64,000 bases of DNA from Eledone cirrhosa (taxonomy: Eukaryota), in the NCBI GenBank assembly GCA_964016885.1, contig OZ024742.1, forward strand, positions 368,466,001-368,530,000, in the 5' to 3' direction. The stretch's first letter is position 1; every line of letters begins with the position of its first letter. The notes under the pieces were generated by a model. That model saw only the letters and a program-made list of their open reading frames with translations. It did no database searches and was not told the origin of the DNA. The translations under genes and the position numbers were made by a program. Below, one piece after another: positions 9,001-60,199 of this stretch.

Positions 9001-12000
9001 ACCAATACTACAACCACTACTACCATCACTACCAATACTACAACCACTACTACCATCACTACCAATACTACAACCACTATTACCATCACTACCAATACTA
9101 CAACCACTACTACCATCACTACCAATACTACAACCACTACTACCATCACTACCAATACTACAACCACTACTACCATCACTACCAATACTACAACCACTAC
9201 TACCATCACTACCAATACTACAACCACTATTACCATCACTACCAATACTACAACCACTACTACCATCACTACCAATACTACAACCACTACTACCATCACT
9301 ACCAATACTACAACCACTACTACCATCACTACCAATACTACAGCCACTACTACCATCACTACCAATACTACAGCCACTACCATCACTACCACTACTACCA
9401 TCACTACCAATACTACAGCCACCACTACCATCACTACCAATACTACAGCCACTACTACCATCACTACCAATACTACAACCACCACTCCCATCACTACCAA
9501 TACTACAACCACTACTACCATCACTACCAATACTACAGCCACTACTACCATCACTACCAATACTACAACCACCACTCCCATCACTACCAATACTACAACC
9601 ACTACTACCACCACTACCAATACTACAACCACTACTACCATCACTACCAATACTACAACCACTACTACCATCACTACCCATACTACAGCCACTACTACCA
9701 TTACTACCAATACTACAACCACTACTACCATCACTACCAATACTACAACCACTACTACCATCACTACCAATACTACAGCCACTACTACCATCACTACCAA
9801 TACTACAACCACTACTACCATCACTACCAATACTACAGCCACTACCATCACTACCACTACTACCATCACTACCAATACTACAGCCACTACTACCATCACT
9901 ACCAATACTACAGCCACTACTACCATCACTACCAATACTACAGCCACTACTACCATCACTACCAATACTACAGCCACTACCATCACTACCACTACTACCA
10001 TCACTACCAATACTACAGCCACTACTACCATCACTACCAATACTACAGCCACTACCATCACTACCACTACTACCATCACTACCAATACTACAACCACTAC
10101 TACCATCACTACCAATACTACAACCACTACTACCATCACTACCAATACTACAACCACTACTACCATCACTACCAATACTACAACCACTACTACCATCACT
10201 ACCAATACTACAACCACTATTACCATCACTACCAATACTACAACCACTACTACCATCACTACCAATACTACAACCACTACTACCATCACTACCAATACTA
10301 CAGCCACTACTACCATCACTACCAATACTACAGCCACTACCATCACTACCACTACTACCATCACTACCAATACTACAGCCACTACTACCATCACTACCAA
10401 TACTACAACCACCACTCCCATCACTACCAATACTACAACCACTACTACCATCACTACCAATACTACAGCCACTACTACCATCACTACCAATACTACAACC
10501 ACCACTCCCATCACTACCAATACTACAACCACTACTACCATCACTACCAATACTACAACCACTACTACCATCACTACCCATACTACAGCCACTACTACCA
10601 TTACTACCAATACTACAACCACTACTACCGTCACTACCAATACTACAACCACTACTACCATCACTACCAATACTTCCAATACTACAGCCACTACTACCAT
10701 CACTACCACTACTACCAATACTACAGCCACCACTCCCATCACTACCAATACTACCAATACTACAGCCACCACTCCCATCACTACCATTACTACCAATACT
10801 ACAACCACTACTACCATCACTACCACTACTACCAATACTACAGCCCCACTCCCATCACTACCACTACTACCAATACTACAGCCACCACTCCCATCACTAC
10901 CATTACTACCAATACTACAGCCACTACTACCATCACTACCACTACTACCATCACTACCAATACTACAACCACTACTACCATCACTACCAATACTACAACC
11001 ACCACTACCACCACTACCAATACTACAGCCACTATTACCATCACTACCAATACTACAACCTCTACTACCATCACTACCAATACTACTACCACTACCATCA
11101 CTACCAATACTACAACCACTACTACCATCACTACCAATACTACAACCACTACTACCATCACTACCAATACTACAACCACTACTACCATCACTACCAATAC
11201 TACAACCACCACTCCCATCACTACCAATACTACAACCACTACTACCATCACTACCAATACTACAACCACTACTACCATCACTACCAATACTACTACCACT
11301 ACTACCATCACTACCAATACTACAGCCACTACTACCGTCACTACCAATACTACAACCACTACTACCATCACTACCAATACTACTACTACCACTACCATCA
11401 CTACCTATACTACAGCCACTACTACCATCACTCTCAATACTACAACCCCTACTACCATCACTACCAATACTACAACCCCTACTACCATCACTACCAATAC
11501 TACAACCCCTACTACCATCACTACCAATACTACAACCACTACTACCATCACTACCAATACTACTACTACCACTACAATCACTACCAATACTACTACTACC
11601 ACCACTACCAATACTACAACCACTACTACCGTCCCTACCAATACTACAACCACTACTACCATCACTACCTATACTACAGCCACTACTACCATCACTACCA
11701 ATACTACAACCCCTACTACCATCACTACCAATACTACAACCACTACTACCACCACTACCAATACTGCAACCACTACTACCGTCCCTACCAATACTACAAC
11801 AACTACTACCATCACTACCTATACTACAGCCACTACTACCATCACTACCAATACTACAACCACTACTACCACCACTACCAATACTACAACCACTACTACC
11901 GTCACTACCAATACTACTACTACCATCACTACCAATACTACAACCACTACTACCATCACTACCAATACTACAACCCCTACTACCATCACTACCAATACTA

Positions 12001-15000
12001 CAACCACTACTACCTTCACTACCAATACTACAACCACCACTACCATCACTACCAATACTACAACCACTACTACCATCACTACCAATACTACAACCACTAC
12101 TACCTTCACTACCAATACTACAGCCACTATTACCATCACTACCAATACTACTACCACTACTACCATCACTACCAATACTACAACCACTACTACCATCACT
12201 ACCAATACTACAACTACTACTACCATCACTACCAATACTACAACCACTACTACCTTCACTACCAATACTACAACCACTACTACCTTCACTACCAATACTA
12301 CAACCACTACTACCATCACTACCAATACTACAACCACTACTACCATCACTACCAATACTACAACCACCACTACCATCACTACCAATACTACAGCCACTAC
12401 TACCATCACTACCAATACTACAACCACTACTACCTTCACTACCAATACTACAACCACTACTACCTTCACTACCAATACTACAACCACTACTACCTTCACT
12501 ACCAATACTACAGCCACCACTACCATCACTACCAATACTACAACCACTACTACCATCACTACCAATACTACAGCCACCACTACCATCACTACCAATACTA
12601 CTACCACCACTACCATCACTACCAATACTACAACCACTACTACCATCACTACCAATACTACAACCACTACTACCATCACTACCAATACTACAACCACTAC
12701 TACCGTCCCTACCAATACTACTACCACTACTAACACCACTACCAATACTACAGCCACTACTACCATCACTACCAATACTACAGCCACTACTACCATCACT
12801 ACCAATACTACAACCACCACTACCATCACTACCAATACTACAGCCACTACTACCATCACTACCAATACTACAACCACCACTACCATCACTACCAATACTA
12901 CTACCACTACTACCATCACTACCAATACTACAGCCACTACCATCACTACCAATACTACAGCCACTACTACCATCACTACCAATACTACAACCACCACTAC
13001 CATCACTACCAATACTACTACCACTACTACCATCACTACCAATACTACAGCCACTACCATCACTACCAATACTACTACCACTACTACCATCACTACCAAT
13101 ACTACAACCACCACTACCATCACTACCAATACTACAGCCACTACTACCATCACTACCAATACTACAACCACTACTACCATCACTACCAATACTACAACCA
13201 CCACTACCATCACTACCAATACTACAGCCACCACTACCATCACTACCAATACTACAGCCACCACTACCATCACTACCAATACTACAACCACCACTACCAT
13301 CACTACCAATACTACAGCCACCACTACCATCACTACCAATACTACAACCACTACTACCATCACTACCAATACTACAACCACCACTACCATCACTACCAAT
13401 ACTACAGCCACCACTACCATCACTACCAATACTACAACCACCACTACCATCACTACCAATACTACAACCACCACTACCATCACTACCAATACTACAACCA
13501 CCACTACCATCACTACCAATACTACAGCCACCACTACCATCACTACCAATACTACAACCACCACTACCATCACTACCAATACTACAACCACTACTACCAT
13601 CACTACCAATACTACAACCACCACTACCATCACTACCAATACTACAGCCACTACTACCATCACTACCAATACTACAACCACCACTACCATCACTACCAAT
13701 ACTACAGCCACCACTACCATCACTACCAATACTACAGCCACCACTACCATCACTACCAATACTACAGCCACTACTACCATCACTACCAATACTACAGCCA
13801 CTACTACTATCACTACCAATACTACAACCACCACTACCATCACTACCAATACTACAACCACCACTACCACCACTACCCATGCTACAGCCACTACTACCTT
13901 CACTACCACTACTACAGCCACTACTACCATCACTACCAATACTACAGCCACTACTACCATCACTACCAATACTACTACCACTACTACCACCACTACCAAT
14001 ACTACAGCCACTACTACCATCACTACCGATACTACATCCACTACTACCATCACTACCAATACTACAGCCACTACTACCATCACTACCAATACTACAACCA
14101 CCACTACCATTACTACCGATACTACAACCACCACTACCATCACTACCAATACTACAACCACTACTACCATCACTACCAATACTACAACCACTACTACCAT
14201 CACAACCAATACTACAACCACTACTACCATCACTACCAATACTACAACCACTACTACCATCACTACCAATACTACAACCACTACTACCATCACTACCAAT
14301 ACTACAGCCACTACTACCATCACTACCAATACTACAACCACTACTACCATCACTACCAATACTACAACCACTACTACCATCACTACCAATACTACAACCA
14401 CTACTACCATCACTACCAATACTACAACCACCACTACCATCACTACCAGTACTACAGCCACTACTACCATCACTACCAATACTACAACCACTACTACCAT
14501 CACTACCAATACTACAACCACTACTACCATCACAACCAATACTACAACCACTACTACCATCACTACCAATACTACAACCACTACTACCATCACAACCAAT
14601 ACTACAACCACTACTACCATCACTACCAATACTACAACCACTACTACCATCACAACCAATACTACAACCACCACTACCATCACTACCAATACTACAGCCA
14701 CTACTACCATCACTACCAATACTACAACCACTACTACCATCACTACCAATACTACTACCACTACTACCATCACTACCAATACTACAGCCACTACTACCAT
14801 CACTACCAATACTACAACCACTACTACCATCACTACCAATACTACAACCACTACTACCATCACAACCAATACTACAACCACTACTACCATCACTACCAAT
14901 ACTACAACCACTACTACCATCACAACCAATACTACAACCACCACTACCATCACTACCAATACTACAACTACTACTACCATCACAACCAATACTACAACCA

Positions 15001-17950
15001 CTACTACCATCACTACCAATACTACAACCACCACTACCATCACTACCAATACTACAACTACTACTACCATCACTACCAATACTACAACCACTACTACCAT
15101 CACTACCAATACTACAACCACCACTACCATCACTACCAATACTACAACTACTACTACCATCACTACCAATACTACAACCACTACTAACATCACTACCAAT
15201 ACTACAACCACCACTACCATCACTACCAATACTACAACTACTACTACCATCACTACCAATACTACAACCACCACTACCATCACTACCAATACTACAGCCA
15301 CTACTACCATCACTACCAATACTACAGCCACTACTACCATCACTACCAATACTACAACCACTACTACCATCACTACCAATACTACAACCACTACTACCAC
15401 CACTACCCATACTACAACCACTACTACCATCACTACCAATACTACAACCACTACTACCATCACTACCAATACTACAACCACTACTACCATCACAACCAAT
15501 ACTACAGCCACTACTACCATCACTACCAATACTACAGCCACTACTACCATCACTACCAATACTACAACCACTACTACCATCACTACCAATACTACAACCA
15601 CTACTACCACCACTACCCATACTACAACCACTACTACCATCACTACCAATACTACAACCACTACTACCATCACAACCAATACTACAGCCACTACTACCAT
15701 CACTACCAATACTACAGCCACTACTACCATCACTACCAATACTACAGCCACTACTACCATCACTACTAATACTACTACCACTACTACCACCACTACCAAT
15801 ACTACAACCACTACTACCATCACTACCAATACTACAACCACTACTACCATCACTACCAATACTACAACCACTACTACCATCACTACTAATACTACTACCA
15901 CTACTACCACCACTACCAATACTACAACCACTACTACCATCACAACCAATACTACAGCCACTACTACCATCACTACCAATACTACAACCACTACTACCAT
16001 CACAACCAATACTACAGCCACTACTACCATCACTACCAATACTACAGCCACTACTACCATCACTACCAATACTACAACCACCACTACCATCACTACCAAT
16101 ACTACAACCACTACTACCACCACTACCAATACTACAACCACTACTACCATCACTGCCCATACTACAACCACTACTACCATCACTACCAATACTACAACCA
16201 CTACTACCATCACTACCAATACTACAGCCACTACTACCATCACTACCAATACTACAACCACTACTACCATCACTACCAATACTACAACCACTACTACCAT
16301 CACTACCAATACTACAACCACTACTACCACCACTACCCATACTACAACCACTACTACCATCACTACCAATACTACAACCACTACTACCATCACTACCAAT
16401 ACTACAGCCACTACTACCACCACTACCCATACTACAACCACTACTACCGTCACTACCAATACTACAACCACTACTACCATCACTACCAATACTACAACCA
16501 CCACTACCATCACTACCAATACTACAGCCACTACTACCATCACTACTAATACTACTACCACTACTACCACCACTACCAATACTACAACCACTACTACCAT
16601 CACTACCAATACTACAACCACTACTACCATCACTACCAATACTACAACCACTACTACCATCACTGCCAATACTACAACCACTACTACCATCACTACCAAT
16701 ACTACAGCCACTACTACCATCACTGCCAATACTACAACCACCACTACCACCACTACCAATACTACAGCCACTACTACCATCACTACCAATACTACAGCCA
16801 CTACTACCATCACTACCAATACTACAACCACCACTACCATCACTACCAATACTACAGCCACTACTACCATCACTACTAATACTACTACCACTACTACCAC
16901 CACTACCAATACTACAACCACTACTACCATCACTACCAATACTACAACCACTACTACCATCACTACCAATACTACAACCACTACTACCATCACTACCAAT
17001 ACTACAGCCACTACTACCATCACTACCAATACTACAACCACTACTACCATCACTACCAATACTACAACCACTACTACCACCACTACCAATACTACAACCA
17101 CTACTACCATCACTACCAATACTACAACCACTACTACCATCACTACCAATACTACAACCACTACTACCATCACTACCAATACTACAACCACTACTACCAT
17201 CACTACCAATACTACAACCACTACTACCATCACTACCAATACTACAGCCACTACTACCATCACTACCAATACTACAGCCACTACTACCATCACTACCAAT
17301 ACTACAACCACTACTACCATCACTACCAATACTACAACCACTACTACCACCACTACCAATACTACAGCCACTACTACCGTCACTACCAATACTACAACCA
17401 CTACTACCATCACTACCAATACTACAACCACTACTACCATCACTACCAATACTACAACCACTACTACCACCACTACCAATACTACAGCCACTACTACCGT
17501 CACTACCAATACTACAACCACTACTACCATCACTACCAATACTACAACCACTACTACCGTCACTACCAATACTACAACCACTACTACCATCACTACCAAT
17601 ACTACAGCCACTACTACCGTCACTACCAATACTACAACCACTACTACCATCACTACCAATACTACAACCACTACTACCGTCACTACCAATACTACAACCA
17701 CTACTACCGTCACTACCAATACTACAGCCACTACTACCGTCACTACCAATACTACAGCCACTACTACCATCACTACCAATACTACAACCACTACTACCAC
17801 CACTACCAATACTACAGCCACTACTACCATCACTACCAATACTACAACCACTACTACCACCACTACCCATACAACTACCACTACTACCATCACTACCAAT
17901 ACTACAACCACTACTACCACCGCTACCCATACTACAACCACTACTACTAC
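1..17950. repeat. 30-bp tandem satellite (ACTACCAATACTACAACCACTACTACCATC), ~600 copies, truncated by window start
   Basis: Period of 30 is directly visible. Most indels are multiples of 3. All long ORF-track entries here (LQPLLPSLPI, GSDGSSGCSI, poly-V) are translations of this unit. Confidence 0.97.
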
Positions 17951-17984
17951 AAACAGTACTACAAGTCTATATATAGTCTGTCTT

Positions 17985-18212
17985 AAGCCAGGAGTCTCGT
18001 TAGACCAGTACTTATTCCGCTTTCATGGCGTGAAGCGACTGAGAGTACAAGACTATCCCCTGGACAGGACGCCAGTCCATCGCAGGTTTAAACACCCAGC
18101 TATTACTGGTACTCATTTTCAGTGGAGTATACTGGAGCAACGTGAAATGAAGTGTCGTGCTCAAGAACGCAACACGCAGCCCAGGAATCGAACCCACGAC
18201 ATTATGATCGTA
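17985..18212 (-). mobile_element. tRNA-derived SINE with CORE-like body (family A)
   Basis: The minus strand has B-box GGTTCGATTCC, then gttcttgagcacgacacttcatttcacgttgctccag. Homologous to copies at 21288, 36200 and 37360. Confidence 0.8.
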
Positions 18213-24166: not shown

Positions 24167-24251
<85 letters not shown>

Positions 24252-24261
24252 ACATATATAT

Positions 24262-25218
24262 ACTAGACATGAAAAATGCGCAAGCTCAAAAGTGCCACAA
24301 AATGTTATAATAAACCTTCAAAAGTGTGGGACTAGAGTTGTTGCTAAAAAATATTGTAATCATTATATATCGTACATTCTGTGGCATCCTTTATAAAAAT
24401 AGCTTAAACCAACGAAGCCTTTATTTTTACGCTATTTCACTTAGTTAATTCTTAGAGTGTAACATATAAAAATATGATTTACAACTATAAAATAAATTAA
24501 TTAATATAATAACAGAGCTGCGGAGCTGAAATTTAGGAAATAATGGAGTATCGGATCCTGAGTTGGAGCCAGTCAATTTTTGACCGACTCCGCAGCCCTG
24601 TATAATACATTTCATATTAAAGTTATTAATAAACCTATTTTACACTTCATGCAAATTACCACGAGATATTGATATTAGATATAAGATACAGCGCAATATC
24701 TACAGCTGTAAAAGTACGAAAGCGAAGTAATAATAAGTGGCTTAAGGTAATTCCAATATGAAAGTTTGTAGTGATAAAAATTTGATAATGCAATACGATT
24801 GTTAATATTATAGTTCTATGAAAATGTAACAATAGATAACTAAATTATTTTACTATTAGTATATTTAAGAAATTATCATTATAGATTTGATCGTTCATAT
24901 AAGCATCATATTAAGTTTCAACACAATTATTTTGTTACTATGAGTATATGATAATAATATTACGTAATTATTTATAGCTGTTATTACATTAAACATAGAT
25001 GTATTTATTTTTATATGTTACACTCTAAGAATTAACTAAGTGAAATAGCGTAAAAATAAAGGCTTCGTTGGTTTAAGCTATTTTTATAAAGGATGCCACA
25101 GAATGTACGATATATAATGATTACAATATTTTTTAGCAACAACTCTAGTCCCACACTTTTGAAGGTTTATTATAACATTATGTGGCACTTTTGAGCTTGC
25201 GCATTTTTCATGTCTAGT
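24262..25218. repeat. Fold-back element: ~210-bp inverted repeats (24262-24472 / 25007-25218)
   Basis: The arms are near-perfect reverse complements (actagacatgaaaaatgcgcaagc... / ...gcttgcgcatttttcatgtctagt). Confidence 0.9.
24513..24600. mobile_element. hAT-type MITE
   Basis: TIRs CAGAGCTGCGGAG / CTCCGCAGCCCTG. Flanking 8-mers TATAATAA / TATAATAC match 7/8, consistent with an 8-bp TSD. Confidence 0.7.
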
Positions 25219-26879
25219 TTAATATTTTTTTAAGGCAACGCTTGTAATAACTCTAGTTAAACAGGATATATATTAATAATAAATTATCGTTGTAATGTAA
25301 TTAGATTATGTAATTGTTATTATAAATTATCTTATAAATATTAGTGTAAGATGTATAAAAATATTTTCAGACTTTTAATATAAACAACTACAAAAAACAA
25401 TCAATATTAAATCAATATATTATACATAATAGAAAACATAAAATATACAATACAAAAACAAAATATTTACATACATTTGCAATTATCAGTGTATATACAT
25501 TTTCTTTATATTCCCTGAGCAAATTAATAAGATTTGTTTTTATTGTACATAATTTGATGACTTGTTGGAGTGTATTAAAAGATAGCAACAATTTGTGATT
25601 AAATTGTTATCTTAAGCAACTCACTTTTTAATAGTTGTTGGCTGAGCGAAATTGTAAAAGCCTATGAGCAAATATAAAAAAAAATACACAAACAACATTT
25701 CCTTGTGTTATTACAACATTAGATAAAATAATTGAGCAATTATTGAAACAATTCAATTTGAAAGTCGTCTAGTGACAGTGTATTACTGGTACTTTATTTT
25801 ATCGACCCCGTAACGATGAAAGGCAAAAATGCAAATGCTTAAAATTTAAATTGCCTTAATTCTATCGTCTGCTGTTTCATTAAAGGGAGATTATCGTCTG
25901 TATTTAATTCTATCGTCTACTGTTCCACTAAACAGATATACCTCCACTATCGTCTCTATTTATACATTTTAACTTATAACTTATACACATTTGATTTGAA
26001 ATATTTTATCTAGTCCCCCCTCTCAATATTATGATGATTTCTTTCGAATGAAACAGTTCTAGTCCTGTAGAAGCCATTTATATATATAATTGAACTGAGT
26101 TAAAAATTCACAATATTTATAATTAAATAAGCTCATATATATATGTGTGTATTTATCTGTTTATTGTATTATATATAATGTGTGTATATACAGGATGTCC
26201 CCCAAAAATATATACACACTTCAACAGCATTCTAATAACTATTGCCTGTACAGGTAATCAAAGTGTCAATCGAATGTTAGTTTCGTGTTTTAACAGTACA
26301 AATTTACAATACACACATAAAACCAGTGTATATACATACATGAATGTGTATACACATACATGAATGTGTATATACAATATATATGTATATATATATAGAC
26401 ACATATATTCACGGTGCAACGGTACATTAAAATATAGATGCGGGAGAGGGGGTGTATATATAGGGGCGCTGGGGATAAAGGAGTGTAAAGCGTGTGTAAT
26501 TGATATATTGAAGGAGAGGAGCGTGCAGCGATAGAGTAACAAATATATAGAGAGGGGGAGAGATGGTATTGAAGGGGAGGAGTGCAAAGCGAAAGAGTAA
26601 GAGATATATATAGAGACGGAACAGATAGAGAGAAACAGGCGTAAGTAACAGTGGAAGAGATATAGAGAGAGGTACTCTGATTGGTTGAAAATTAGCCAAT
26701 GACATACGATCACCACCACCACGGCTATCCCCGAAAAATTTTTAAAGAAGCTAGGCATATATGTTAGAACACGAAAAGTGAACATTCTGTGTTTCACACT
26801 TTTCGTGTTCTAACAGATATTTAAATGTAAACAGGATATGTTAGGCCCTTGTGACATTGGAATAGCTTCACACCTGTAA

Positions 26880-31578: not shown

Positions 31579-32310
31579 TATAACATTTGATTGTAAGTTC
31601 ATTATTTACATCAACGTATCACTTAAGACTAGCAGTTTGAAATTGTGGTATACATCAGCAGCTCCGCTTGTATATTTGGGATCTATATTCTAAGGGGGCT
31701 CTTTTATATTAGTTGTCGGAATTGTAAATGGGATGGGTTATGGGGAGTTAAGAGAATTTGAAAATGGCCTGAGAGTCAAGGATTGAAGGTTAAAAATTAG
31801 ATAATTTATAATTTACGCATTAAAAGTAAAAGACTTGGGATCTCATAGAAGCACCTTAAAAAATCCCTCAATAAGTGCATAAAGCTTACAAGCCCCAATA
31901 AACTTAACAAACTAGAAGAGATTAAGAGACTAATAAAATAAAATAAAATAAAAAAATAAAGATATAAAGTTTCCCTAAAAAAATATAAAGTTTCCCAAGA
32001 AGTTCCCTCGAGAGAAAAAAATTTCTTTCGAAAGAAAAAAAAAAAACTTTCTTCCCCAGAGATCTCGTTAAAAAATTTTCGGAAAATTTACGAAGTTTTG
32101 ATAATCTCTACTAAGTTGAAAGAAACTAATCAATTAAAGGTTAATTCAAAAAGCCTTCAATAAACCCCTCAGAAAAGGCCCCTTTAATATTTTTAATAGG
32201 AACCTCCTCCGAGAGACCCTTCGAAGAATTAAAATTTTAGAGACCCTTTAAGGATATATATAAACGAATTGAGGAAAATTATAAATTAAAAGTTAAAAAT
32301 TACGGGGGAA

Positions 32311-33388
32311 GAAAAATGCGTACAGCAAAAAAATATAATATTGTTGGAATATAAACCTTTAAAAATACAGGACAAGAAACTAAAATAAAACTTTAAAAGA
32401 ATAGGACAAGAAACTAAGATAAAACTTTAAAAGAATAGGACAAAAAACTAAGATAAAACTTTAAAGAATTGGATAAGAAATAAAAAATTTTACAATAATA
32501 TTAGTGGCAAAATTTTTATTGGTAAAAAATCGAGTTCCACATTCATAGGCTCTGGGTTCCACATTCAGAGGTCGTCGTCAGACCGGGGGATCATTTTATC
32601 CTGGTTTGAACACCAATTGGGCCATAACCATACCCCTATTTCATCATTCGGCGACACGCCTCATGTGTCATGCATAATGTGAATGGACCCATGGGCCCAT
32701 GAGCACAGATCTTGAGCAGCAGCGGACGGTCTTGTCATCCCGCTCATCCTTGATCTTGACCAACCCGTCCATCTTCTCCTTGCATCTTGTCCTTGAGTTC
32801 AAGTCCGGCAGTCTAGATGAATGCGTGCCACAGCTTTCTGGTACAGGAAGGGGGAGCAGGAGGACTGGAGGGATGACGGGACAGAGGTAGGGAGGACCGG
32901 TGGTTGAGGGAGGTGCCGTAGTCGGTGGTCAGAGTCGACATCTTGTCCCGGTCGTCTTCTCCATCTTCGTCTGGTGTTGCGGGACCAGAAGTGCATTCTT
33001 GGAGGAGACCTGCAGCTGCATCGGCCAATTCTTCTTGCAATGGTCATTCTGACGGAGCAGAACTGCTCAGCCAACCAACCCCAACCAGAACCAACCGCTC
33101 AGGGGCAACGCACAATGAGAGCATGACAATTATTATGCACTAATCAAGAAGATACTGGAGCATAGCACAGGAAACGAATAAAAAAATGTTGTCACTAATA
33201 TTATTGTAAAATTTTTTATTTCTTGTCCAATTCTTTAAAGTTTTATCTTAGTTTCTTGTCCTATTCTTTTAAAGTTTTATCTTAGTTTCTTGTCCTATTC
33301 TTTTAAAGTTTTATTTTAGTTTCTTGTCCTGTATTTTTAAAGGTTTATATTCCAACAATATTACTTTTTTTTGCTGTACGCATTTTTC
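32311..33388. repeat. Fold-back element: ~210-bp inverted repeats (32311-32521 / 33177-33388), each with ~34-bp subrepeats, enclosing a GC-rich spacer
   Basis: The arms are reverse complements. The subrepeat ggacaagaaactaagataaaactttaaaagaata occurs 3-4 times per arm. Confidence 0.9.
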
Positions 33389-34209
33389 TATCTGGTCTAC
33401 TATTTTTTAAGGCAATGCAAGCAACAACTATCTAATAATTAAATTATCATAGTGAATTACTGACAAGTGATTGACATTTTAAAGTTCTTTTGAGTATAAT
33501 TGCAATCTAGTTGAGGCAACTGGCTTAATGACAAAGCTAGTAAATCATGAATGCATTTGAGATGATTAGTGCATAAAAGTGAATTGGTGAAACTTGTGCA
33601 TTTCAATGGTGTTACAACAATAGATGTAAGTTATATAGTAGTAATACTTTATCATTTTAACTTTTTAGAATGGACAAAAACCCATGCAAATAAATTACTT
33701 TGACTGCAGTGGTTCTCTCCAATTTACTTACAAAGCAAAACGTGGTCAAATACTTTATCATCTCTGATAAAATGCCCATTGAATCACATTGAATCGGATG
33801 CATGGAATTCCTCATAAAATGCACCTATGAATCGGAAGCCATCACATATATCAATGGATATAGGGAGTTGTTCACACTGGAAGACCATCACTTCATTTGT
33901 GACTTCATCAGTTATCTCCACAATTGTCTCAGACACCCAATGCCATTGATGAGAGGTGATCCAATGTGTGAGCATGTAACTAATCTTATAGAAGTTGTTA
34001 TCGACCACCTAGCTTTTAGTGACATTTGACTGATTTGACTGATAATGATGTATTTTTAAAAAGTATGTGTACATTCTTGTTACTATTTTAAGGCAATGCA
34101 AGCAAGAACTATTTAATAAAATTTAAATTTAAAAATGACCATTGTGCATTACTAGTATGATGACATTTTATTAAGTCACAAAATTAGTCAGTCAGCCATA
34201 GAACAAGGA

Positions 34210-34963
34210 TCAGGTGGCAAAAACATTGGCAAAAATTTGTGTCAATTTAAGATTTCCAACATTGTTCAAATGAATCATATCTGGTTTGAAGTCAGATTTG
34301 TCAAATTTTGACCAATTTTCAATGTTGTGAAGATTGGGTAAGTTCAATTTTTGAATCATTTCTTTCATGCAGTAATTAAACTTTTCCAAACGAGAATTTC
34401 TCTTGCCCAAGTCATTTTTATTTTCAATTACACTTTGTGGACGTGGAATGACACCACTGTAGAAAATGGGTGTACAGTGGTGCTTTTCCGCTATTTTCTG
34501 TAGCCTTGCAAAGAGACTCTTCCCCTGTTTTTCCGGTTTTGTGCCTCGAATGGGCACTTTGTCCTTAATTTACAAATAAATGATTAATAAAAAATACTTG
34601 GGCAAAAATGATTGTATTACTTTGCACAGCTTTGTAGTGCCAACGATGCGACGAGTATTCAGATCATTAGAGCCGAAATGAACCACCAATACTTTCACAA
34701 AAGGACAACAGATAACAATGTTGGCGATTAACATTACCTGGCCCTGACGGGCCCCAGGTATACAAAATATCTAAGTATTTTTGTTGGTATGATAAGTAAA
34801 TACATTTGAATTAATATTTTTATACCTTCTGATCATTCGATTTCGCCACATTTCTAATTATGGATTTGTAAAAACTGGCATGAATGTGAATTTGATCAGT
34901 CCAATTGCCCGATTTTAGTGAAAAGTTTTGATTCGAAATGGAAATACTCCATTTCCGTGCCAT
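34210..34963 (-). CDS. Three-exon SGNH/GDSL-type hydrolase (esterase), 213 aa; exons 34963-34826, 34770-34621, 34563-34210
   Basis: Manual splicing at two phase-0 GT-AG introns (55 and 57 nt) gives an open frame from ATG to stop. The SGNH blocks are in order: (YK)SIIRNV, FCIPGAR, VVHFGSNDL, IFYSGVIPRP, DMIHLNNVG. Confidence 0.75.
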
Positions 34964-36199
34964 GGAAAAAATGAATAAGCCGATCAAAAGCCGCGAAACA
35001 TCATTTTTAATTAAGCGAAATTAGTGGATGCAAATCTCAGAAAATATTGTACACTATTCGCACCTATCGCACTATTCGCACCTATCGGTACAAAAATATA
35101 GCGCACTATTCGCACCTATCGGTACAAAAAATCGCACGACTCTTAATAATACTAGAAGTGCAAACTATCTGTTGAATACCTGGTATATGAAGAGCAACCG
35201 ATACGATCGGTCGGCGATCGGTCTTGAAGAAGAATGAAGAATGAAGTGAAATTTTGGTCTGGTTGTTGTCATCGGTGTTTCGCAGAGATGCCGGCACGAA
35301 TAAAGGTGTCAGTGACACAAAGTTGTCCGCTTGAACAAAGGTGTCGGTCCGACAAAGGTGTCAGTCAGACAGACAGTCAGACAGTGTCACAGTCGGTGCG
35401 ACAAAGCGATCGATGCGATAAAAAATGTTTAACTCACATGTTTACCTATATTTTCGCAACTATTGATAGATTGGTACAAAAAATAGCTTTGATAATAAAC
35501 ATAAATTTTTAACGAAGTATTTAAAAAGCATTTTAGCAGTGAAAAGTGAAGTAATGTTTCACACTGACGCAAGTAGGGCCGTTCAGAAATGACGTAGTCA
35601 ATTAGGAGGAGGGGATTCGGCGATTTGACTACATTTGACTAACGTAATCACACTCACAAGAGTTCCGCCGAAAAAAATTCGTCATTTCTGGATTACCTCC
35701 CCTAGCGTCACGCTTACTACTCACTCACTTGAACACAAGATTTATCAGCAAACTTTGATTATAAACTTTTTCCCGCTGGACCAAATTTCTAGATTTTTAA
35801 GCCAAAAGATGCGTAATGATCTACTGTTCATGCTCATATAAGTTTTATCTCAGTTAAATAAAGTAGAGCCGCGCTGTACTGTCGTAAACAGACGATTGCC
35901 AACGAAAACACGACCACAACAATATTACTAAACGGACTACCGTCCGTTTAGGATGAAATAAATATGTTTTATAAATATAGTTTCCATTTGTTAATATCGT
36001 ATATCTACTCCAAATATTTGTCGAGTGCTTTATATCAGTTATAAAAATATTTACTTGCTGTATCCCAACAATTTAAATAGAACTTTTGCATATATATATA
36101 TATATATATAATATATATATATAAAGGAACGATCGACTTTCGTCAAATCGGACCGAGGAAACAATGCTTCCGTTGGTTATTCCAATTGCTAATACTATC

Positions 36200-44186: not shown

Positions 44187-47100
44187 CTATAGTCTGATGT
44201 AGAGTGAAGGCCCATTCACACGGGCCATTCTCGCCACTTTCACCCATCTTTCATAGAAACGGCTGGGCTGCAGCACCTCTCTCTCCATCCTGATCCTTCT
44301 TCCGAAATGATATCGGAAGAAACGGACCAGTTGTTGGCCAGAGAGAAAGGTGCCCGACCTCAGTCCTTTCAGACGCGTCCACCATACAACCTCTTTCGCC
44401 ATGGCTATTACGCACAGAAACACCGCCTCTGCTTCATCTTTGAAGGGGGGAGGCGGCTTGATCATTACAATAGACTCGGTGGTCAACCGGATCGGTCCCA
44501 CCCTTGACAGCAGTTGTTCGACATAGCCCCACAGATCGGCTACGCCCGAGCAGTGTACTAATGCGTGTGCAACGGTTTCCTCGTCGCACACGCATCTGGG
44601 ACAGATCTTTTTGGCGGGGTCCCTACCCGGGCGCCCGTGTCTGTAGAGCCTTTCTCGAACGGGTAAAGCCCCTCGGTAGCACTGCCAGGCCAGGGACTTC
44701 TGGAAGTTGTCCATAGGTCCCGGGCTGAATGTCCTACCGAACAGGCTGGCCAGTTCGTCCTCCTCCATGTCTAGGGCTTCTCCGAGGGCGTCGTCGCACC
44801 TGCTGCGCACCAGCCCTCTATAGAATGTTGCGGTGGAGTCTCCACTGATAACCGGATCCGCCTGCCAGAGGGCGGTGAGCGCCTGGGCACACTCAGTGTG
44901 CCAGGCGCCCAGTTTTCTCGGTCTTTGCTTGACCCAGGATTGCAGCTCGGTGAGTGAGACGAGTCTGGGAAAGGTTCGTCTCACAAACGAGGCCCACACC
45001 GGTTGTCCGGTGAGGAATACGTAGAGGTGCCGTAGCCTTAATGCGTGTTTACGCATCATTAGCCACGGCATCCCCAGCCCTCCTTTCGAAGGGTGTTGAC
45101 AGCAGATGGATCTCCTCACCATAGGAGCCCGCCTCTTCCAAAGGAATTGGAAGAGCGCGCGCTCCATCTTGGTGAGGGTTTCCCTTGGGCAGGGCACTAC
45201 GGTCAGGCGGTAGTAGATGACGGACGCTATGTAGGTGTTCGCCACCTCCGCCCGACCTTTCAGGGATAGTTTGCAACTGGCCCACTTCTGGGTCAGTGCA
45301 AACACCCTGTTCGTAACCTCCGCCCAGTTTTTCTCCACCTGGAGGTCCGGTCCGAACCAGACCCCGAGCAACTTCACCGGGCCCTCCGTCCAGCGTCCGA
45401 CGACGCTATCGGAGGGCATCGGTCTGCCCCTCCACGTGCCGAGTTGCAAACCGATCGACTTGTCCCGGTTCAGCTTAGCCCCTGTGAACTTTTCGTACTC
45501 CTCCAGTAAGGTGCCGACCGCCTCGATTTCGGAGGCCGTCGACACCATTACTGTCACGTCATCGGCGTAGGCCGACACCGCTTTCCGCAATCCCGGTTCC
45601 AAAGGGATGCCCTGCAACAACTCCAACTTCCGCAGTAGTGGCTCGAGAGTCAACACATACAGAAGGGAGGAGAGAGGGCACCCTTGTCGGATGGACCGCG
45701 CGATTTTGAACGGCTCCGAGAGGTAGCCGTTCACCTTGACCCTGGAGCAGATGCGGCTGCTGTGCATAGCAGTGATCCAGCCCCTGAAAACGGGTCCGAA
45801 GCCTGCCGCCGCTAGCACCGCATCCAGGTAACCATGGTCGACCCTATCGAACGCCTTAGATTGATCCAAGTTGATCAGAGCCCCACCAAAGCCGGGTTCG
45901 TTCCCAACCCTCTCTATGATGTATCGCATGAGGTGGAGGTTGTCATGGATGGACCTGGACGGGATAGCGCATGTCTGCGCATCTCCCACCAGGTTGCCCA
46001 CGACAAGCGCCAACCTCTTTGCTAGCACCTTGGCCAAAATCTGTAACTCTGTATTTAGCAGTGTTATGGGCCTGAAGTTACTTATTTCGTCCCCCTTGTT
46101 CTCGTCCTTCCTCACTAGCGTGACTACGCCCTTGGTCACAGTACAGGGAATTCTCCCGTTCTGTTGCCAGTTGCAGTAGACCGCCTCGAGGAGATCGGGG
46201 AACAAGTCCGGCATAGCTAGATATAATTCGTAAGGAAGACCATCGAGACCCGGGGATTTGCGTTTGCCGCATTGGCTCAGCACGTCCTCTATCTCAGCGG
46301 CCGAAATCGGCTCCTCGCAGGACTTCGCCTCCCTGTCCGAGAGGCGCGGCAGGCCGTCGAGGTATGGACCGAAGTCCACGTTCCCAACCGGCTCCCCGCC
46401 CCTCCCGAACAGTCGGGCAAAGTGCCTTTGAAAGGCCTCACACATCTGCTTAGGCTCAAGAATCGCCCGTCCATCCAGGTCTTGCAAAGACCGGATGGTG
46501 GATTTAGTTCCACTGTTGGCCTCTGTCACGCGGGCCCAGCTAACAGCTTTGGTCCCCTCGTTCCCTAGAGCACGTATTTTACTTCGGACAACGCAGCCTT
46601 CGTGCTTCGCGTCGAAAAACTGGCTCAAAGCCGTTCTCGACGCTAGCACTCTGGCCACGTCGCCGCTTCTAATTGCCTCTTCTACTCTATCTATTAGCTC
46701 CCTTTCCTTCCTATTCCTATCCGCAGCTAGAACCTTACTAAATTCTATCGAGACTACTCTAATCTCTCTCTTTGGAGATACCCATCACCTGCTGTTGACG
46801 ATCGCTCCAGTCAACCGTTCCTTAACTAACGTACTAATCCGATTCCTGTAGGCTCTACTTGCCGGCAAGGACAAGTTGAGCTTCCAGTAACCGGGGCCCT
46901 GTCTATGAGTTCTGTCAAGGTTGACCATGCAGGTCACTAATTTGTGGTCTGAATAGCCAACAATGCGCATTTTTGGACAACTTAAAAAGTCCTTATCCTT
47001 AATTCTAACTAAGAACCTATCTAGGTACGACCTAGATGATCCGCTACGATTTGCCCAAGTCCAGGTTGGCGCAGTCGGAAAATCTAGTCGATATCTATCG

Positions 47101-47624
47101 GCCAGGTCAAATCGACCGATTAACCCTTTGAGGCTATTACACCCCTCTCTATCGGGGCAGGCCCCTACGTAGTCCCAGCGTGCATCTAGGATACCATTCC
47201 AGTCCTCCACTAATAGCAAGGAGCGGGACGTCCCTAGAAAAGTCTCCAGACGATGGAAGAAGTCCGGCCGCATTGACCCGAAAGGGCCGTAGGCGGCTAC
47301 CAACCTAAACGCTCCGCCTTTACCACTGCCAAGGTCCAGAACCACTAGTCGACCCTCCGGGTACAAATGTACCATCTGTGTTGCGAGACCCAGATGTTTT
47401 TGCAGCAGAACGACAACTCCACCCCCACCTCCGGGCTGACAGAGAGATGCGTGCATCTCAAAGTCATCAAAGGTGGGGGCCAGCTGTCGCACGTTGCTGA
47501 TCCGGGCCTCGCAAATAACCATCACATCTATACGTTGTGACCTGAGGTCATTTAGAAGCATTGCTTGCTTCCAAGTTGAGCCCAGGCCACGCGCATTTAA
47601 ACAGCCTACTCTTAGCATAGCCAT
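44187..47624 (-). pseudogene. ORF2: APE endonuclease + reverse transcriptase, one in-frame TGA at 46785-46787
   Basis: CLNARGL, DWN, YLDRFLV and YSDH (APE); KSPGLDG, NFRPITLLN, LDQSKAFDRV, RQGCPLS and AYADD (RT); CPRC...ETVAHALVHC. The two ORF-track pieces are in the same frame. Confidence 0.93.
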
Positions 47625-47648
47625 GTTGGTGGTGAAGAGAAAAGGCAC

Positions 47649-49437
47649 TTACCTCTCTGCGTCCCGGGTATCGGGCTGCACAATTTCCATTAGGGTGGGG
47701 GATGGGTTGTTGGGTGGGGTGGTGGTTTGTGGAAGTGTGTGGGCATCAGTGTGTTGTGTGGTTGGGGAGCTTGGAGTTGTGAGGGTGTTTGGGGAGGGGG
47801 TGGGATAGTTTTTTAGGAGGACGCGGTTAATGGGCCCGACGCAGGGGGGACCCACGTCCTCTTTAAAATTGTTTTTTAAAGTTTTATAGGTGTCCTGTGG
47901 GGCCTTAATCATTTTGAGGTGGGGGAAATCCCCTGCCTGGGTGAAGTTAGGCCCTTGTGTTTTTATTAGATTGTTGTTGTACACAATGTTTAACAGTTTT
48001 TTGTTTCTTGTATTTATGTATGTGTATGCATGTTTTTGTTTTTGTGTGGTGTTTTTTGTTTGCTGTTGTGAGCTCTTTTGTGTTGGTGTCAGTGTTATGT
48101 TTTGGGGAGGGGTTTTTTTCATTTGTGTGTCTGAGGTGTGTTTTCTTTTTTTTCTTTTGATTGTGTGGAAGTGCTCCTCCTCGTCTGACGACGAACTAGG
48201 GTCATCTTCCGCGTTGGAGGGGAGGGGTATATTTTCGGGTTGTGTTTGCGGTACGGGTGTTTCGGAAATTGTTTTTGTTTTTTGAGTGGAGGGGATGGGT
48301 CGGACATTGTTTTGTTTTGGTTTGAGCTGTGGTGGTTGTTTTTGTAGTGGTAGTTGTGGTGATTGTGTTGGTTGTGCAGTTGTTGGTGGTGTAGGCAGGA
48401 TTGGGGTTTTCTTATTAAGTTGGGGACAGACAGCCCTCAGGTGACCTCTGGTTCCGCAGAGGTAACACGAGGGCCGTCTACCCTCAACGGTAATGTTGAT
48501 GAAGGTTAGATCATCCAGTATGACGCGTTCAGGGATCTGGGCGATCCTTTCGGGCCTCATTTGAACTACAAGTTCGAGGCTCGTTCCACTGAACGCGTCA
48601 CCCGATGCCTTTCCCATGGACACCAGCATGTCATCCTCCAGGTCCAGAAAACCTGTCAAAACCCACCATATGTCCATAATCGGCAGGATGGTGTGGATTT
48701 TTATTTTTTGTGTTCTTCTACCCATGTACGTAGGGTAGAAGGTGTATGCGGTGGATGTGATTGGTTTGATGGACAGTTTCACTGCTGTGTCCCTGTCCTT
48801 CATGAGAATGGATAGACTCCCGTAGAGTCTATCCTTCTGAATGAAGGTGATGTCCTTCATGACGTCTTTTAAAACCAGCTCTATCTCGCTCTGTGATGGT
48901 TGAGCTGGTTTTTTACTTTTGTTCGAGATTGTCCTAAACATGACCGTGTTTAGGAGTCTCTGGCTTTTTAGTTCCGGGGGGGAATGGATTGTGAATGAAC
49001 CATTTTCCCCGTACACTATATATTTTTTCGCATCCGCCAGTAGCTCCTTCGCTTTTTGTTATATCTACTGGCAGATAGTCGAGGGTTTTCCTTGTCGTCT
49101 CGGCGAAGGAGAAATTTTGTTTGTTTGTGTTGTTGTTGTCGTTGGTGGTGTTGTTGTTATCATTGTTGTTGTTGTCACCGTTATTGGTCTTGTTGTTGTT
49201 ATTGTTATTGTTATTGGTGTTGTTTTCGTCCGTCGCATTGTTGTTGTTGTTGCTGTTGCTGCTGGTTCTTTGGGTTGTTGCCATGGCAACGTCAAGTTGT
49301 CGGTTAACAGGTGGAGAGAATTCTTCCTCTGGCTGACCTATCTTCTTGACCTCTGCTACTGTGACAGTGGCAGGGGGAAGCTGTAAGTTCATCTTCCCCT
49401 TTCCTCCTTCGAATTTTGGTGAAGAAGCTTCGGCCAT
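47649..49437 (-). pseudogene. ORF1 (gag-like, CCHC zinc knuckle), frameshift near 49020
   Basis: CYLCGTRGHLRAVC knuckle. The N-terminal part (MAEASS..., Asn-rich) is in a different frame. Confidence 0.85.
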
Positions 49438-50096: not shown

Positions 50097-50167
<71 letters not shown>

Positions 50168-50254
50168 TTATATATATATATATAGTTATACTTGGGGAGG
50201 GTCATATTTGTGTAATATTGCCAGAATTAATAACAGAACACACTCACTGGTCTC

Positions 50255-51600
50255 ACATGCAATAGGGGCTAGTATCAAAACTACCCTAAAGGGCCACATA
50301 TTCAAGTTCAACGAGAAGATCTACACCCAAAATGAGGGAGCAGCCATTGGCGTCAGCATAGCTGGTGATGTTGCAAACCCTTTTATGGTATGGTGGGAAA
50401 GGAAACTTAAAGTTCTCCATAGACCTCATCATTTACTCTCGTTACGTAGACGATATCAATATAGTTATAAGAACACCCTCACTAGAGAGCACTAACAAGT
50501 TTGATTTAGAACGTAGCACAATGGAAAGCATCCAGCAGATAGCTAATTCCATACACCAGAGTATAACTGTAACTATCGACTACCCTTCCAAACACCCTAA
50601 CAATAGACTACCTGTATTAGACACGGAACTCTGGATTAACACTATAGACGAGAGAGCCCAAATTCTCCACTCACACTATGCTAAACCCATGGCCTCCAAA
50701 TACCTGATACTCAAAAACTCAGCAATGTCCAGTAGTGTTAAGTTTAATATTCTGATCGCAGATTTGGTACGAGTGATGAAGAATGTGTCCCGCATGTGCG
50801 ACCCAACAGAAATGGAAAGACACATCCAACACTTCATCAACCGCATGCAGTTCTCTAGCTAGAACCAAAGAGACAGAATCAGAGTATACGAAGGAGCCAT
50901 GGAGAAGTATAAGACCCTCATAGAACTGGACATGAAAGGAATTTTCCCACTATACAGCAGCAAATCCTGGAATAGCTTAGATAGGGCCAGACATAATATA
51001 GGGAAAGCCACCTCATGGTACGACAACCAGAGATACTAGAGTGTCATGTTTGTGGATGCTACCCCTGGAGGGAAATTAGCTTACCAGTGTAGAAAGGCCC
51101 TGAAAAAGACCCACTTAAAGGTTAAGGTGGTAGAAAAGCCAGGAACCACCATAAAATCCCTGATCAGCAAAACCTACCCTTTTAAGAAAACCCACTGTAC
51201 CAATAGGAAATGTATCATATGTAAGGTAAACCTCCGGATAAACTGTAAAACTAGAAACGTAGTCTATAGCATAAGATGTACAGAGGGTACTTGCAGAAAG
51301 ATGACAACAACATACATAGGCGAAACAGCTCGTAGCATAGGTGAAAGGATAGACCAACACTGGGGGGAATTAAAAGGACGAAAAAACGGGTCAGTACTAT
51401 ACGAACATGCCAGACAACAACACGACGGTAACATAGACAACATAGAAATTAGAATAATATCTAAACATAGAAATGACCCAGCAGATAGGCAAATCAGAGA
51501 GGCCAGTGAAATAGAACTTAGAAGGCCAAGACTAAACAGAAAGAATGAATGGAATAACAACAACACCCAAACAAACAACACTGACCTAAGAGAAGTATAA
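50255..51600 (+). pseudogene. PLE reverse transcriptase + C-terminal GIY-YIG endonuclease (frameshift and stops)
   Basis: FKFNEKIYTQNEGAAIG, YSRYVDDI, LPVLD, HYAKP; linker CTNRKCIIC; NVVYSIRC...YIGETARSIGERIDQH...REASEI...PRLN. Confidence 0.9.
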
Positions 51601-53904: not shown

Positions 53905-56466
53905 CTCTTGGACACATTGGATATTGGGCGCTCGCTTCCATCAGGATAGCGATGAAACAGGACTGCTCCAATACCAACGTTTGACGCGTCGCAAGCCAGT
54001 CCCAAAGTTTTGTTTGGATCGAAGTGTATCAGAACTCGATCCGATGAAAGCACATTTTTCAACTGATCGAAAGCTGACTGTTCTTCATCTCCCCACTTCC
54101 AAGTAGTCGTTTTTTTAGTAAGGCAATAGAGTGGCTCTACCATGATGGCCAGGTTTGGGATAAACTTTCCATGGAACTGAACTGAACCCAGGAAAGACTT
54201 CAAGCTTGAGACGTTCGTTGGAGGTGGCATCTTTAAAACTGTTTCGACCATGGATCCCTTCAGCCGACAAGGTGTGTCCAAGGTATTCCACACTGGGTAG
54301 TGCAAACTGGCACTTGTCACGGCGACATCTGAGTCCTTTGTCGCACAGACGTGTGAGCAGACACTTTAGGTTGTTCAGGTGATCGTTTGCATCTTTCCCA
54401 CTGACGAGCATGTCGTCCTGGAAGACGGCCACACCAGGTAGATCTTGAGTCAGGTTTTCCATGATCTCCTGAAAGTAACCAGGTGCTGACTTGATTCCGA
54501 AAGGGAGTCGTTCCTGCAGGAGCACCCCACGGTGAGTGCTGAGTGCAAGCCTGCGTTGACTTTCTGGAGCCAGCTTGATCTGATTATAGGCATCAGCAAG
54601 ATCAATCTTTGTGTATCCGAATCCACCTCCGAGCTTCTGCATCAGTTCCTCTGGGAGTGGCATTGGATGACGATGATCTGCAAGTTGGTCATTAATTCCC
54701 ACAGAGTAGTCACCACAAATCCGTAGTTTGGGCTTCAGGTTGCCTGAAGTATGTGCTTTACGAATCGGTACCACTGGTGTTCCGTATTCGTTGAACTGTA
54801 TTGGCTTCCAGATTCCTTTGGCGATGCCTTCTTCGTAACCTTTGGCCAGGTCATCACGAAGAGCAAACGGGACCGGGCGTGCCTTGTGAAAGACCGGTGT
54901 CGCGTCCGACTTGAACTTCACTTCCAATTCGAAGTCATTAAGACATCCCAATTCTTGCTTGAAGAGATCTGGGAATTCATCACACATGTTGTGACAATCT
55001 CGTTGCATGGAAATATAGAGCTCATTTGAGGTCTTTGGATGCATCACTTCTGCACCCTCACTCTTGGTCTGGCTGTCTATGCTTTTCAATCCTAGAGCAT
55101 TGTCCACGGAAATTCCCAGAGTCTGGATAGCGTTTCGTCCCAGCAAATTAAGATCAGGGATCTTGGTGATGATGTAGGGTATTGAATTCCGTTTACCGGT
55201 CGTTGGATCCTTGGTTTGGCCTATGAAAGTTCCCAGAACGGGCAGGTTGTGCTTGCTGGCAGATTCAAACCGATGTTTGACATCTTGCAGCTTCGGTTTT
55301 CCTAATTGTTTCCAAACTGACAAGGAAACAAAATTGCCTGTAGTAGCTGTGTCCAATTCCATTGTGAAAAGTCTGTTCTGGATTGTTATTGGCACATTCA
55401 AACTATGAGTATCGTGGGGAACTTCACCAAGGATCGCCTTGACTAGCTCAGCTTTCGTGATTCTTTTCACGTAATTCAGTGAGCGATGATTACGTTGCTG
55501 ATGCTGTTTCTTTCTACACACCGCTTGCAAATGTCCCTTTTTGTCACAAAAATGACATTTGGCTTCTTTGAAGGGGCAGTCTGTCGCTTTGTGGGCCTTT
55601 CCACATCGGTAGCACATCTCCTGGTCTGTGGAATAAGACTGCTGATAGTTCTTTCGAGGACCCTTGTTCTTGTTCTGCTGGACCTTGTAGACTTGCTTGG
55701 TTTTGGAACCGTAAACAGTTTCCTTGGCAACCTTTGCTGCGTCTTCGGTCCCGGTGGCAACTTTGACAGCACGGGCGAAATCTAGTTCTGTATCCTTGAT
55801 CTTGAAAATAGCCTTCAACACAGCTTCATTATTGACAGAACATATAAATCTCTGTCTTAGAGCTTCATCTTGTGGATTTGTGATCGAAGGAAAATCACAG
55901 GTAGCTGCATCCTGACGTATACGTGCTGCCAGCTCCTGGAGAGTTTCGCCTGGCTTCCGTTGCATGTCACTCCAGAACTTGAAACGTTCTCTCACAATGA
56001 AAAGTTTTGGGTCGAACTGTTCATTCATAAAATCAACAATTTCGTCCATTGTTAACTTGTTGATATTCTTAGGCGGATTTTGGTGAGCAGCTAGATTTGC
56101 AAGTTGTTTGTAGATAGCCACCGTCTGATTAGTCAGGAACACTTGTGCCATGCGTTGCTCGGGTACAGCGTTAGCAGCCACAAACGTGCAGAATCTTGAC
56201 CAGTAATCAGGCCATAGTTCTGTTGCTGAATCAAAAGCAGCAAATGGTGGGATGAATGCTGTTGGTGTCGAAGCAACTGGCGACGCCAATAAACTCTGTT
56301 GTTCAGAATCTCGAGCACCAAACAGTTTTATCAGAGTGTCCATATCTTTCTTGTGTTGTTGCATTTGTTGTTCCTGTTGTTGCATTTGTTGTTCCTGTTG
56401 TTGCATTTGTTGTTCCATCTGTTCTCTAAACAACTTTATTAGCTCCGCTGTTTGTTGTTCCGCCAT
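53905..56466 (-). pseudogene. gag-protease-RT-(partial RNase H) polyprotein, frameshift near 54255
   Basis: CYRCGKAHKATDC and CHFCDKKGHLQAVC knuckles, protease ELDTA, RICGDY, KIDLADAYNQI, RLPFG, FQDD, YLGH, LACDASNVGIGAVL. Breaks off after ERPISNVSK. Confidence 0.92.
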
Positions 56467-56488
56467 GTTTTTGTGATAAACAATTTCC

Positions 56489-56577
56489 CGGCAATGTAGG
56501 TAAATCCTATCGGCAATGTAGGTAAATCCTATCGGCAATGTAGGTAAATCCTATCGGCAATGTAGGTAAATCCTATC
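56489..56577. repeat. 22-bp tandem repeat x4 in Gypsy 5' leader
   Basis: CGGCAATGTAGGTAAATCCTAT repeated four times between the PBS and the gag ATG. Confidence 0.9.
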
Positions 56578-59436: not shown

Positions 59437-60111
59437 TTAAACCAGCCATTTCGTTTCGCTTCTCTCTGATCGGTTGTTTATTTGCGGTTGCAGTCGTTTG
59501 ATAAAAAGCGCTTCCTTGATACGTAGCGTGCCGACGTTTCTTTCAGTCGCTAGAATTGTGACAATGGGCCTTCCGTCTTTGTTTCCGCATTTGTCTATGT
59601 GTTTCCGGAAAGACGAGGCCTTGGTTTTAGTGTGTTCCTTGATCCGGATGTGCAAAGGTCGAATTGTGCTACCTATGTAGTATTGGTTGCACCTGTCACA
59701 TTCTATCTTATACACGACGTATGTGCGTAGGCAACAGTTAGCATGGCGTATCGGGCAGTCTCTGAGGGAGCATGCGTCAGTAGATTTTTCGGGTTTCCTG
59801 GAGAGGCATCTTCGCAGGGAGGGGCCCGAGTGGGCCAGGTGGATGTCGAGGCCCTCCCTCCGTATAGCCTTGCGGATAGCGTTGGTGGTTTTCTCGCCCA
59901 GGTGTGGCATTTTAAGGAAGCACTTGCCTTGGGTGCTTCTCTGTCTCTTGCGTCTGGCGTCTCCTATTCTGTCTGTGATCGAGGTAGGGTACCCGTTCGT
60001 CTCCAGCACCTCGAGGAATCGCTTGGTATGAGTGACACCACTCGCGGGATCGTTGCATCTGTTTTTGATTCGCGCGATCTCGTTCGTGATGTATCCTCTT
60101 TTGGCACTGTT
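59437..60111 (-). pseudogene. PLE RT thumb + Cys linker + GIY-YIG endonuclease (C-terminal fragment)
   Basis: LETNGYP, CSLRDCPIRHANCCLRTYVVYKIECDRCNQYYIGSTIRPLHIRIKEH...LRIKEALFIKRLQPQIN. Confidence 0.9.
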
Positions 60112-60199
60112 GAAGGGAAGAGTATAAAGGATAAAACTAAAAATAAAAATAACAACACAAGAGAGAGTTACCTTGGGAGAGATTTAATAGAAATGGGCC

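Follow-up and report, generated by a model that had tools for sequence, protein, structure and literature searches.

The window, by which we mean the whole 64-kb stretch analysed here, carries on its minus strand a predicted gene of 213 codons, obtained by joining three exons in silico (34963-34826, 138 nt; 34621..34770, 150 nt; and 34210..34563, 354 nt). These are separated by two predicted GT-AG introns in phase 0, of which the first (34771..34825, 55 nt, GTATAA...CTTAG) has a length that is not a multiple of 3 and the second (34564..34620, 57 nt, GTAATA...TTAAG) holds an in-frame TAA. This gene model, coordinates and translation included, had been set out in an earlier note on this DNA, and it was reproduced in full. 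The introns are of 18-19% GC and the exons of 36-43%, and contigs of four runs, of unspecified kind, contained no joint at either intron, which speaks neither for nor against splicing. The same note took the product for an SGNH hydrolase, an assignment that is supported by motif order and, only weakly, by profile. Indeed, S34, G52, N81, D191 and H194 fall in the SGNH order, with block II (the G of PGA) and block III (GxND, here GSND) in the second exon and block V (DxxH, here DMIH) in the last, while the G-D-S of block I is absent and reads YKS. The last exon resembles Pfam Lipase_GDSL_3 (E=0.0038, 18 bits, under the curated cut-off of 27), the ESM Atlas neighbours of its counterpart in a parent copy (see below) are GDSL clusters with scores of 0.95-0.89, and its AlphaFold model, built from that exon alone, has a pLDDT of 47; the first and second exons, scanned singly, had no Pfam match. 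Searches with such short queries make for weak negatives: with the last exon, 1.84 billion representatives gave nothing at E<=0.001, and neither 49 candidates of longer proteins nor viral contigs held a homologue; single exons had no convincing match in the PDB and only weak partial matches in phages, and an alignment search with the exon that bridges NADAR and SGNH in the parent gene (see below) yielded 0 of 29 candidates.

What had been described as a stand-alone gene in a gene desert turns out to be part of a high-copy repeat. It lies within a 3.65-kb non-autonomous rolling-circle element of HLE2 type (32310..35953, minus strand); at its 3' end the window copy is ~6 nt shorter than the family. 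Read in gene orientation, the element starts with TCC, and its 3' end consists of the inverted 12-mer followed by a T run and CTGG. A terminal hairpin with a 9-bp stem and a 4-nt loop (35929..35950, minus strand) adjoins the 5' TC on its inner side and carries a compensatory G-C/C-G swap in a sister family; next to it is a 12-bp subterminal inverted repeat (35917..35928, minus strand). The 3' partner of this repeat (32335..32346, minus strand) matches at 11 of 12 positions in the window copy and lies some 30 nt short of CTGG, with which the family ends. A search with the region across the 3.0-Gb genome returned 40 near-full matches at 93-100% identity among the 40 scored of 574 candidates, and one with the last exon 150 scored matches among 303 candidates; the exact 5' terminus occurs 412 times (control 0), and most of 20 copies with long flanks match the window from 32310 to 35954 and diverge beyond. 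The loci fetched include at least 108 distinct full copies of the gene, about 1% diverged, and neither intron is missing from any of the 108. Of 71 distinct 5' flanks, 69 have an A next to the element, and of 51 3' flanks, 50 have a T. Apparent duplications in 31 two-ended copies are short TA-rich overlaps, with 7 of the 31 lacking any, and the one empty paralogue outside microsatellites has no target duplication. Taken as sequence features, the ends, the insertion between A and T and the copy number are those expected of a rolling-circle element. Two other identities were tried and rejected: a MITE with terminal inverted repeats, since the 208-bp repeats described next are internal to the element, and a LINE fragment, because of the introns, the absence of a reverse transcriptase and the linkage to a RepHel enzyme.

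The element has other contents. The 208-bp inverted repeats (32310-32517 and 33182-33389, within 32310..33389) are copies of its 3' end, and the segment between them (32518-33181) is inverted in 3 of 38 orientable long loci, with 8 more unscored, which suggests recombination between the repeats. On the plus strand a 119-codon ORF (33670..34029) holds two stops in the window copy and is open in most copies (at least 110 codons in 108 of 122 loci, counted without removing duplicates); it has no convincing Pfam match and is possibly another cargo gene.

Where did the gene come from? Among 20 further loci, two have Rep/helicase frames directly 5' of the gene, and the locus G000:C28 holds an element of ~12.6 kb that matches the window element from its 5' end to element position 1107 and then again from 1093 to the 3' end. 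The G000:C2 copy likewise matches on either side of this junction, and the sequence removed amounts to 8,985 bp by comparison with the C28 copy and 9,094 bp with the C2 copy. The junction itself (34850..34864, minus strand) is an imperfect microhomology of ~15 bp, and an identical 18-nt junction is found in 91 of 108 chimeric copies. Upstream of it, codons 1-34 (34862..34963, minus strand) encode the N-terminal end of RepHel as found in the parent, with the Ser at the block I position among them; downstream, comparison with the parent identifies 34826..34861 (minus strand) as the remainder of parent exon 3, the SGNH part past GDS. Where RepHel reads ...ASFYKSKKRN and the parent esterase ...YIVGDSIIRN, the window reads ...ASFYKSIIRN, and its codon for the Ser agrees with that of RepHel. 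YKS thus stands in place of GDS because codons 1-34 come from RepHel and were joined on by deletion, and a Ser would have been left at the nucleophile position because both sides read S-x-x-R-N. The earlier note had read YKS correctly and missed the junction; the original gene has GDS. The same deletion would have removed the first core strand, the Gly-Asp and a whole NADAR domain.

We consider it very probable that a predicted NADAR–SGNH gene of five exons, cargo of an HLE2 Helitron, supplied its 3' half to the window gene, which an internal deletion of ~9 kb joined in frame to RepHel codons 1-34 and which is likely a non-functional passenger. A single deletion at the imperfect microhomology, during copying or repair, would keep the frame, and the RepHel of intact relatives, acting in trans, would then have made more than 100 copies of the short element, which had both ends left. 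Loss of the first strand and of Gly-Asp would inactivate the esterase, and the introns would survive because rolling-circle copying involves no RNA step.

A more adventurous proposal is that the chimera is a working new gene, in which the SGNH domain came under the RepHel promoter and start, RepHel residues took the place of the first strand and the product aided the spread of the element. There is something to be said for this: the junction is in frame with Ser at the nucleophile position, the derivative outnumbers the parent type by 108 to 7 (both lower bounds), the ATG is present in 108 of 108 copies, and 47 of these are intact, the others including 33 with frameshifts, 51 with an internal stop and 16 with a broken splice site. 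The substitutions, however, are neutral. Across the 108 copies, which differ on average by 0.9% from the commonest letter of each column, we observed 403 nonsynonymous, 147 synonymous and 29 nonsense changes, where the non-coding parts lead one to expect 436.9, 150.3 and 32.7; the omega-like ratio is 0.94 (p 0.56), being 0.87 for singletons and 1.14 for the shared variants, and splice dinucleotides changed 10 times against 7.4 expected. Any transposon shows neutral change once inserted, and the existence of one useful copy would be compatible with it. Deletions are rarer in coding sequence (0.62 per kb per copy) than in the flanks (1.63), a point in favour of function, though the contrast is biased by copies found partly through protein search and by flanks that hold repeats, and in-frame ones show no excess (14 of 43 vs 33 of 82). 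Each of the catalytic residues S, G, N, D and H is the same in 104-107 of the 108 copies, which at a divergence of only 0.9% is uninformative. In addition, another subfamily, which by deletion has lost most of the gene (8 of 20 loci jump from element position ~278 to 1565), has spread as well, block I Gly-Asp and the strand before it have been lost, a protein that works in trans would give no advantage to the very element encoding it, and microhomology alone accounts for the frame. We regard a working chimera as unlikely.

The earlier note had offered a choice between mobile-element cargo and a domesticated host gene and had asked for a dN/dS comparison among copies. Cargo is the branch that survives. 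A domesticated, stand-alone gene can point to the intact frame and canonical splice sites of the window copy. Against it, the gene sits within intact transposon ends in more than 100 near-identical copies, its last exon finds no homologue in the representatives searched, and the window copy differs from its family by three nonsynonymous changes (found in 3, 1 and 1 copies) against two synonymous ones. Domestication strikes us as barely credible, and the window gene itself is probably debris.

If the window gene is a passenger, the interest moves to its parent, a predicted gene of five exons and 335 codons downstream of RepHel. There are 7 parent-type copies among 10 candidates, which is a lower bound, and block I reads GDS in 6 of the 7 and GDL in one. 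In the C2 copy (L141:3611-5001), splicing in silico at four GT-AG introns (55, 217, 54 and 57 nt) leaves a frame of 335 codons open; of the others, three are full-length and frameshifted, one is partial and open over the last three exons, and two could not be parsed. Both window introns are present in the parent gene too. This bears on the suggestion that the supposed introns are AT-rich insertions and the gene a broken esterase of LINE type that never had introns, a reading that fits the want of any junction read at either intron and that we nonetheless hold to be very unlikely, since all four interruptions in the parent are GT-AG and three of them of 54-57 nt, their removal restores both the 335-codon frame and a continuous NADAR alignment, and 0 of 108 copies lack either intron. 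The 217-nt intron, the second of the NADAR part (L141:3987-4203), contains A/T-run repeats, which may be a small inserted element. Two GDS-bearing, parent-type derivatives of 3.9 kb also lie ~12 kb apart in opposite orientation at 18.34-18.36 Mb of G000:C1 (L146-L148).

Upstream of GDS the parent frame runs into the C-terminal motif of NADAR, and two further exons precede it. Parent exons 1 and 2 align collinearly with Pfam NADAR (E 0.0023 and 0.067, below the curated cut-off), and a six-frame scan of the genome with PF08719 gave a single NADAR match, in a parent copy (E 5.7e-4, one of four candidates, likewise sub-cut-off). Compared with a profile built from five phage proteins, of which four belong to Pfam NADAR, the spliced NADAR part of the C2 copy scores 72.4 bits, continuously over residues 6-144, while the best unspliced frame reaches 29.2 bits and the best of 200 shuffles 6.3; this score favours the first NADAR exon, matches to which seeded the profile. 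The E(H), the K(+7) and the last-strand E of NADAR are present in the parent by motif position, not structure; these E, K and last-strand E residues have been described as catalytic (PMC11543638, PMC11125620, in the parts accessible). As judged from sequence, then, the parent gene is a predicted YbiA-type NADAR fused to an SGNH domain.

The element that carries this gene is, by its domains and ends, a predicted HLE2 Helitron. Its copies on C28 and C18 match Helitron_like_N (E 1e-25), PIF1 (1e-24) and UCH (4e-9), and DUF6570 is found in the RepHel of the sister family, ~86% identical to the parent, and in 30 of 35 database homologues. HELIANO treats DUF6570 as an HLE2 marker and reports UCH to be enriched in subgroups c/d (PMC11417382, accessible text). 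The features shared with HLE2 are thus a parent with Rep, PIF1 and both ends, UCH, DUF6570 (in the sister), subterminal repeats, a stem-loop and the lack of a target duplication. The insertion site is the exception, being A and T instead of the T and T typical of HLE2, and the TC...CTGG/CTAG ends also set the element apart from HLE2 with UCH as so far outlined. The stem-loop lies at the 5' end, as in the HLE2-reverse type of HELIANO (PMC11417382, same text), whereas the A and T target resembles that of proto-Helentrons and HLE1, and the CTRR end that of proto-Helentrons (PMC4067079, PMC5148889, as far as accessible). Canonical HLE1 was ruled out by the hairpin at the other end and by DUF6570 and UCH, and a Helentron in the strict sense because UCH follows the helicase and no AP endonuclease domain (Exo_endo_phos) was found behind it in the stretches scanned. 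None of the parent copies examined has an unbroken RepHel, and a family at 59% identity has open RepHel frames of ~2,230 codons. The RepHel N-terminus (L246:2150-7861 and the parent copies) bears, ~60 codons past the likely start Met, a hydrophobic stretch followed by CVELNPGP, a motif that resembles 2A and is common to the parent family and its sister.

SGNH cargo in Helitrons is already known from texim, and NADAR–SGNH adds a fusion to it. Like the gene described here, texim/teximY of fish Helitrons is a multi-intron, multicopy SGNH cargo that not all Helitrons need. Testis expression is known for texim; it differs in lying upstream of the Helitron coding region, with up to 15 exons, where ours lies downstream of RepHel with 5, and, comparing by description, in that the accessible text mentions no N-terminal NADAR for it (PMC4021074). 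The present gene is a second instance of SGNH in a Helitron, apparently distinct from texim. For NADAR the nearest parallels are in Ectocarpus Gypsy Pol and oyster Tx1 ORF1, which hold YbiA-type cargo as the parent does; these carriers are retrotransposons with an RNA intermediate, in contrast to a DNA rolling-circle element, and in the parent NADAR is part of a separate, intron-containing gene fused to SGNH (PMC12477816, accessible part). In a literature search, with most subscription papers lying outside it, no account of a Helitron that carries NADAR came to light; HELIANO, in its accessible text and one supplement file (PMC11417382), mentions neither NADAR nor SGNH, nor does the accessible part of PMC13282606.

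The esterase of the LINE ORF1 protein of ZfL2-1 shares the SGNH order, has a similar S-G-N spacing (S143/G165/N195 vs S34/G52/N81 here), and is a LINE ORF1 domain behind a coiled coil, which the window SGNH is not (PMC3905857, accessible part). A LINE ORF1 esterase would be expected to be intronless and to lie upstream of a reverse transcriptase, whereas the window gene has introns and is linked to RepHel. The resemblance to LINE ORF1 seen in the earlier note holds at the motif level only: pairwise comparison with a LINE-ORF1-like SGNH protein of the host (L271) gave 2.6 bits, which is not significant against a shuffle maximum of 4.7. The frame of that host protein (L271:1414-2814, G000:C18) has 466 codons and no intron; it encodes a Cys-rich segment, what is probably a coiled coil and an SGNH domain with GCS as block I, and it is the sole PF13472 match in the genome scan.

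What might the parent gene do? It could well be a recently captured host gene that hitchhikes without service to the element, and we would put the chances of this somewhat short of even; such a history would be compatible with a dead window copy. Four introns suit capture from genomic DNA, the cargo is absent from the sister elements C13 and C10, whose ends are near-identical, and from the 59%-identity families, and the full frame is open in only one of five spliceable parent copies, with one further open 3' part. Against this, searches of the genome found no host donor copy, their only NADAR and bridging-exon matches lying in the element family, and both domains recur as cargo of unrelated transposons (PMC4021074, PMC12477816, PMC3905857, accessible parts), a recurrence that suggests a common use. 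No diverged NADAR–SGNH relative was found among ten related elements.

We favour, as the most likely mechanism for the parent gene, an accessory enzyme, neither domain of which would be needed for transposition: its SGNH part would act as an esterase or a membrane binder and, more speculatively, its NADAR part would take ADP-ribose off guanines in the DNA intermediates of the element. NADARs do remove ADP-ribose from guanine in vitro, and the clam enzyme CARP-1 adds such marks to guanine (PMC11543638, accessible part). By analogy with phage NADARs that act against DarT1, an extension, and one on which we would place a small bet only, is that NADAR–SGNH serves animal HLE2 elements as a counter-defence, erasing host guanine ADP-ribose from ssDNA or circular intermediates, with the window gene as its fossil. 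Were this true, nucleic-acid ADP-ribosylation would be an anti-transposon defence in animals. A genome search for a guanine ADP-ribosyltransferase of the Scabin/pierisin type returned no match, in a setting where the controls were also unmatched.

For those who annotate genomes, the lesson is that a clean multi-exon gene with its catalytic residues present can be a transposon deletion junction in more than 100 copies. For biochemists, the interest lies with the parent NADAR–SGNH gene, for which the C2 copy described above provides an open frame that is directly assayable. Elsewhere in the window, positions 1-18000 are occupied by ~18 kb of TAC-rich microsatellite with a GC skew of about -0.94, and inspection of the translations by eye assigns 44187-49058 (-), 54115-56550 (-), 50166-51600 (+) and 59437-60653 (+) to fragments of LINE (endonuclease/reverse transcriptase), Gypsy-like gag-pol and Penelope-like kind. 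At 24249-26826 there is also a derivative of 2.6 kb, 98-99% identical, that stems by internal deletion from a second HLE2 family; in long copies of that family the Rep-PIF1-UCH frames, of ~2,230 codons, are open, and the derivative has its own 5' hairpin and a 221-bp internal inverted repeat.
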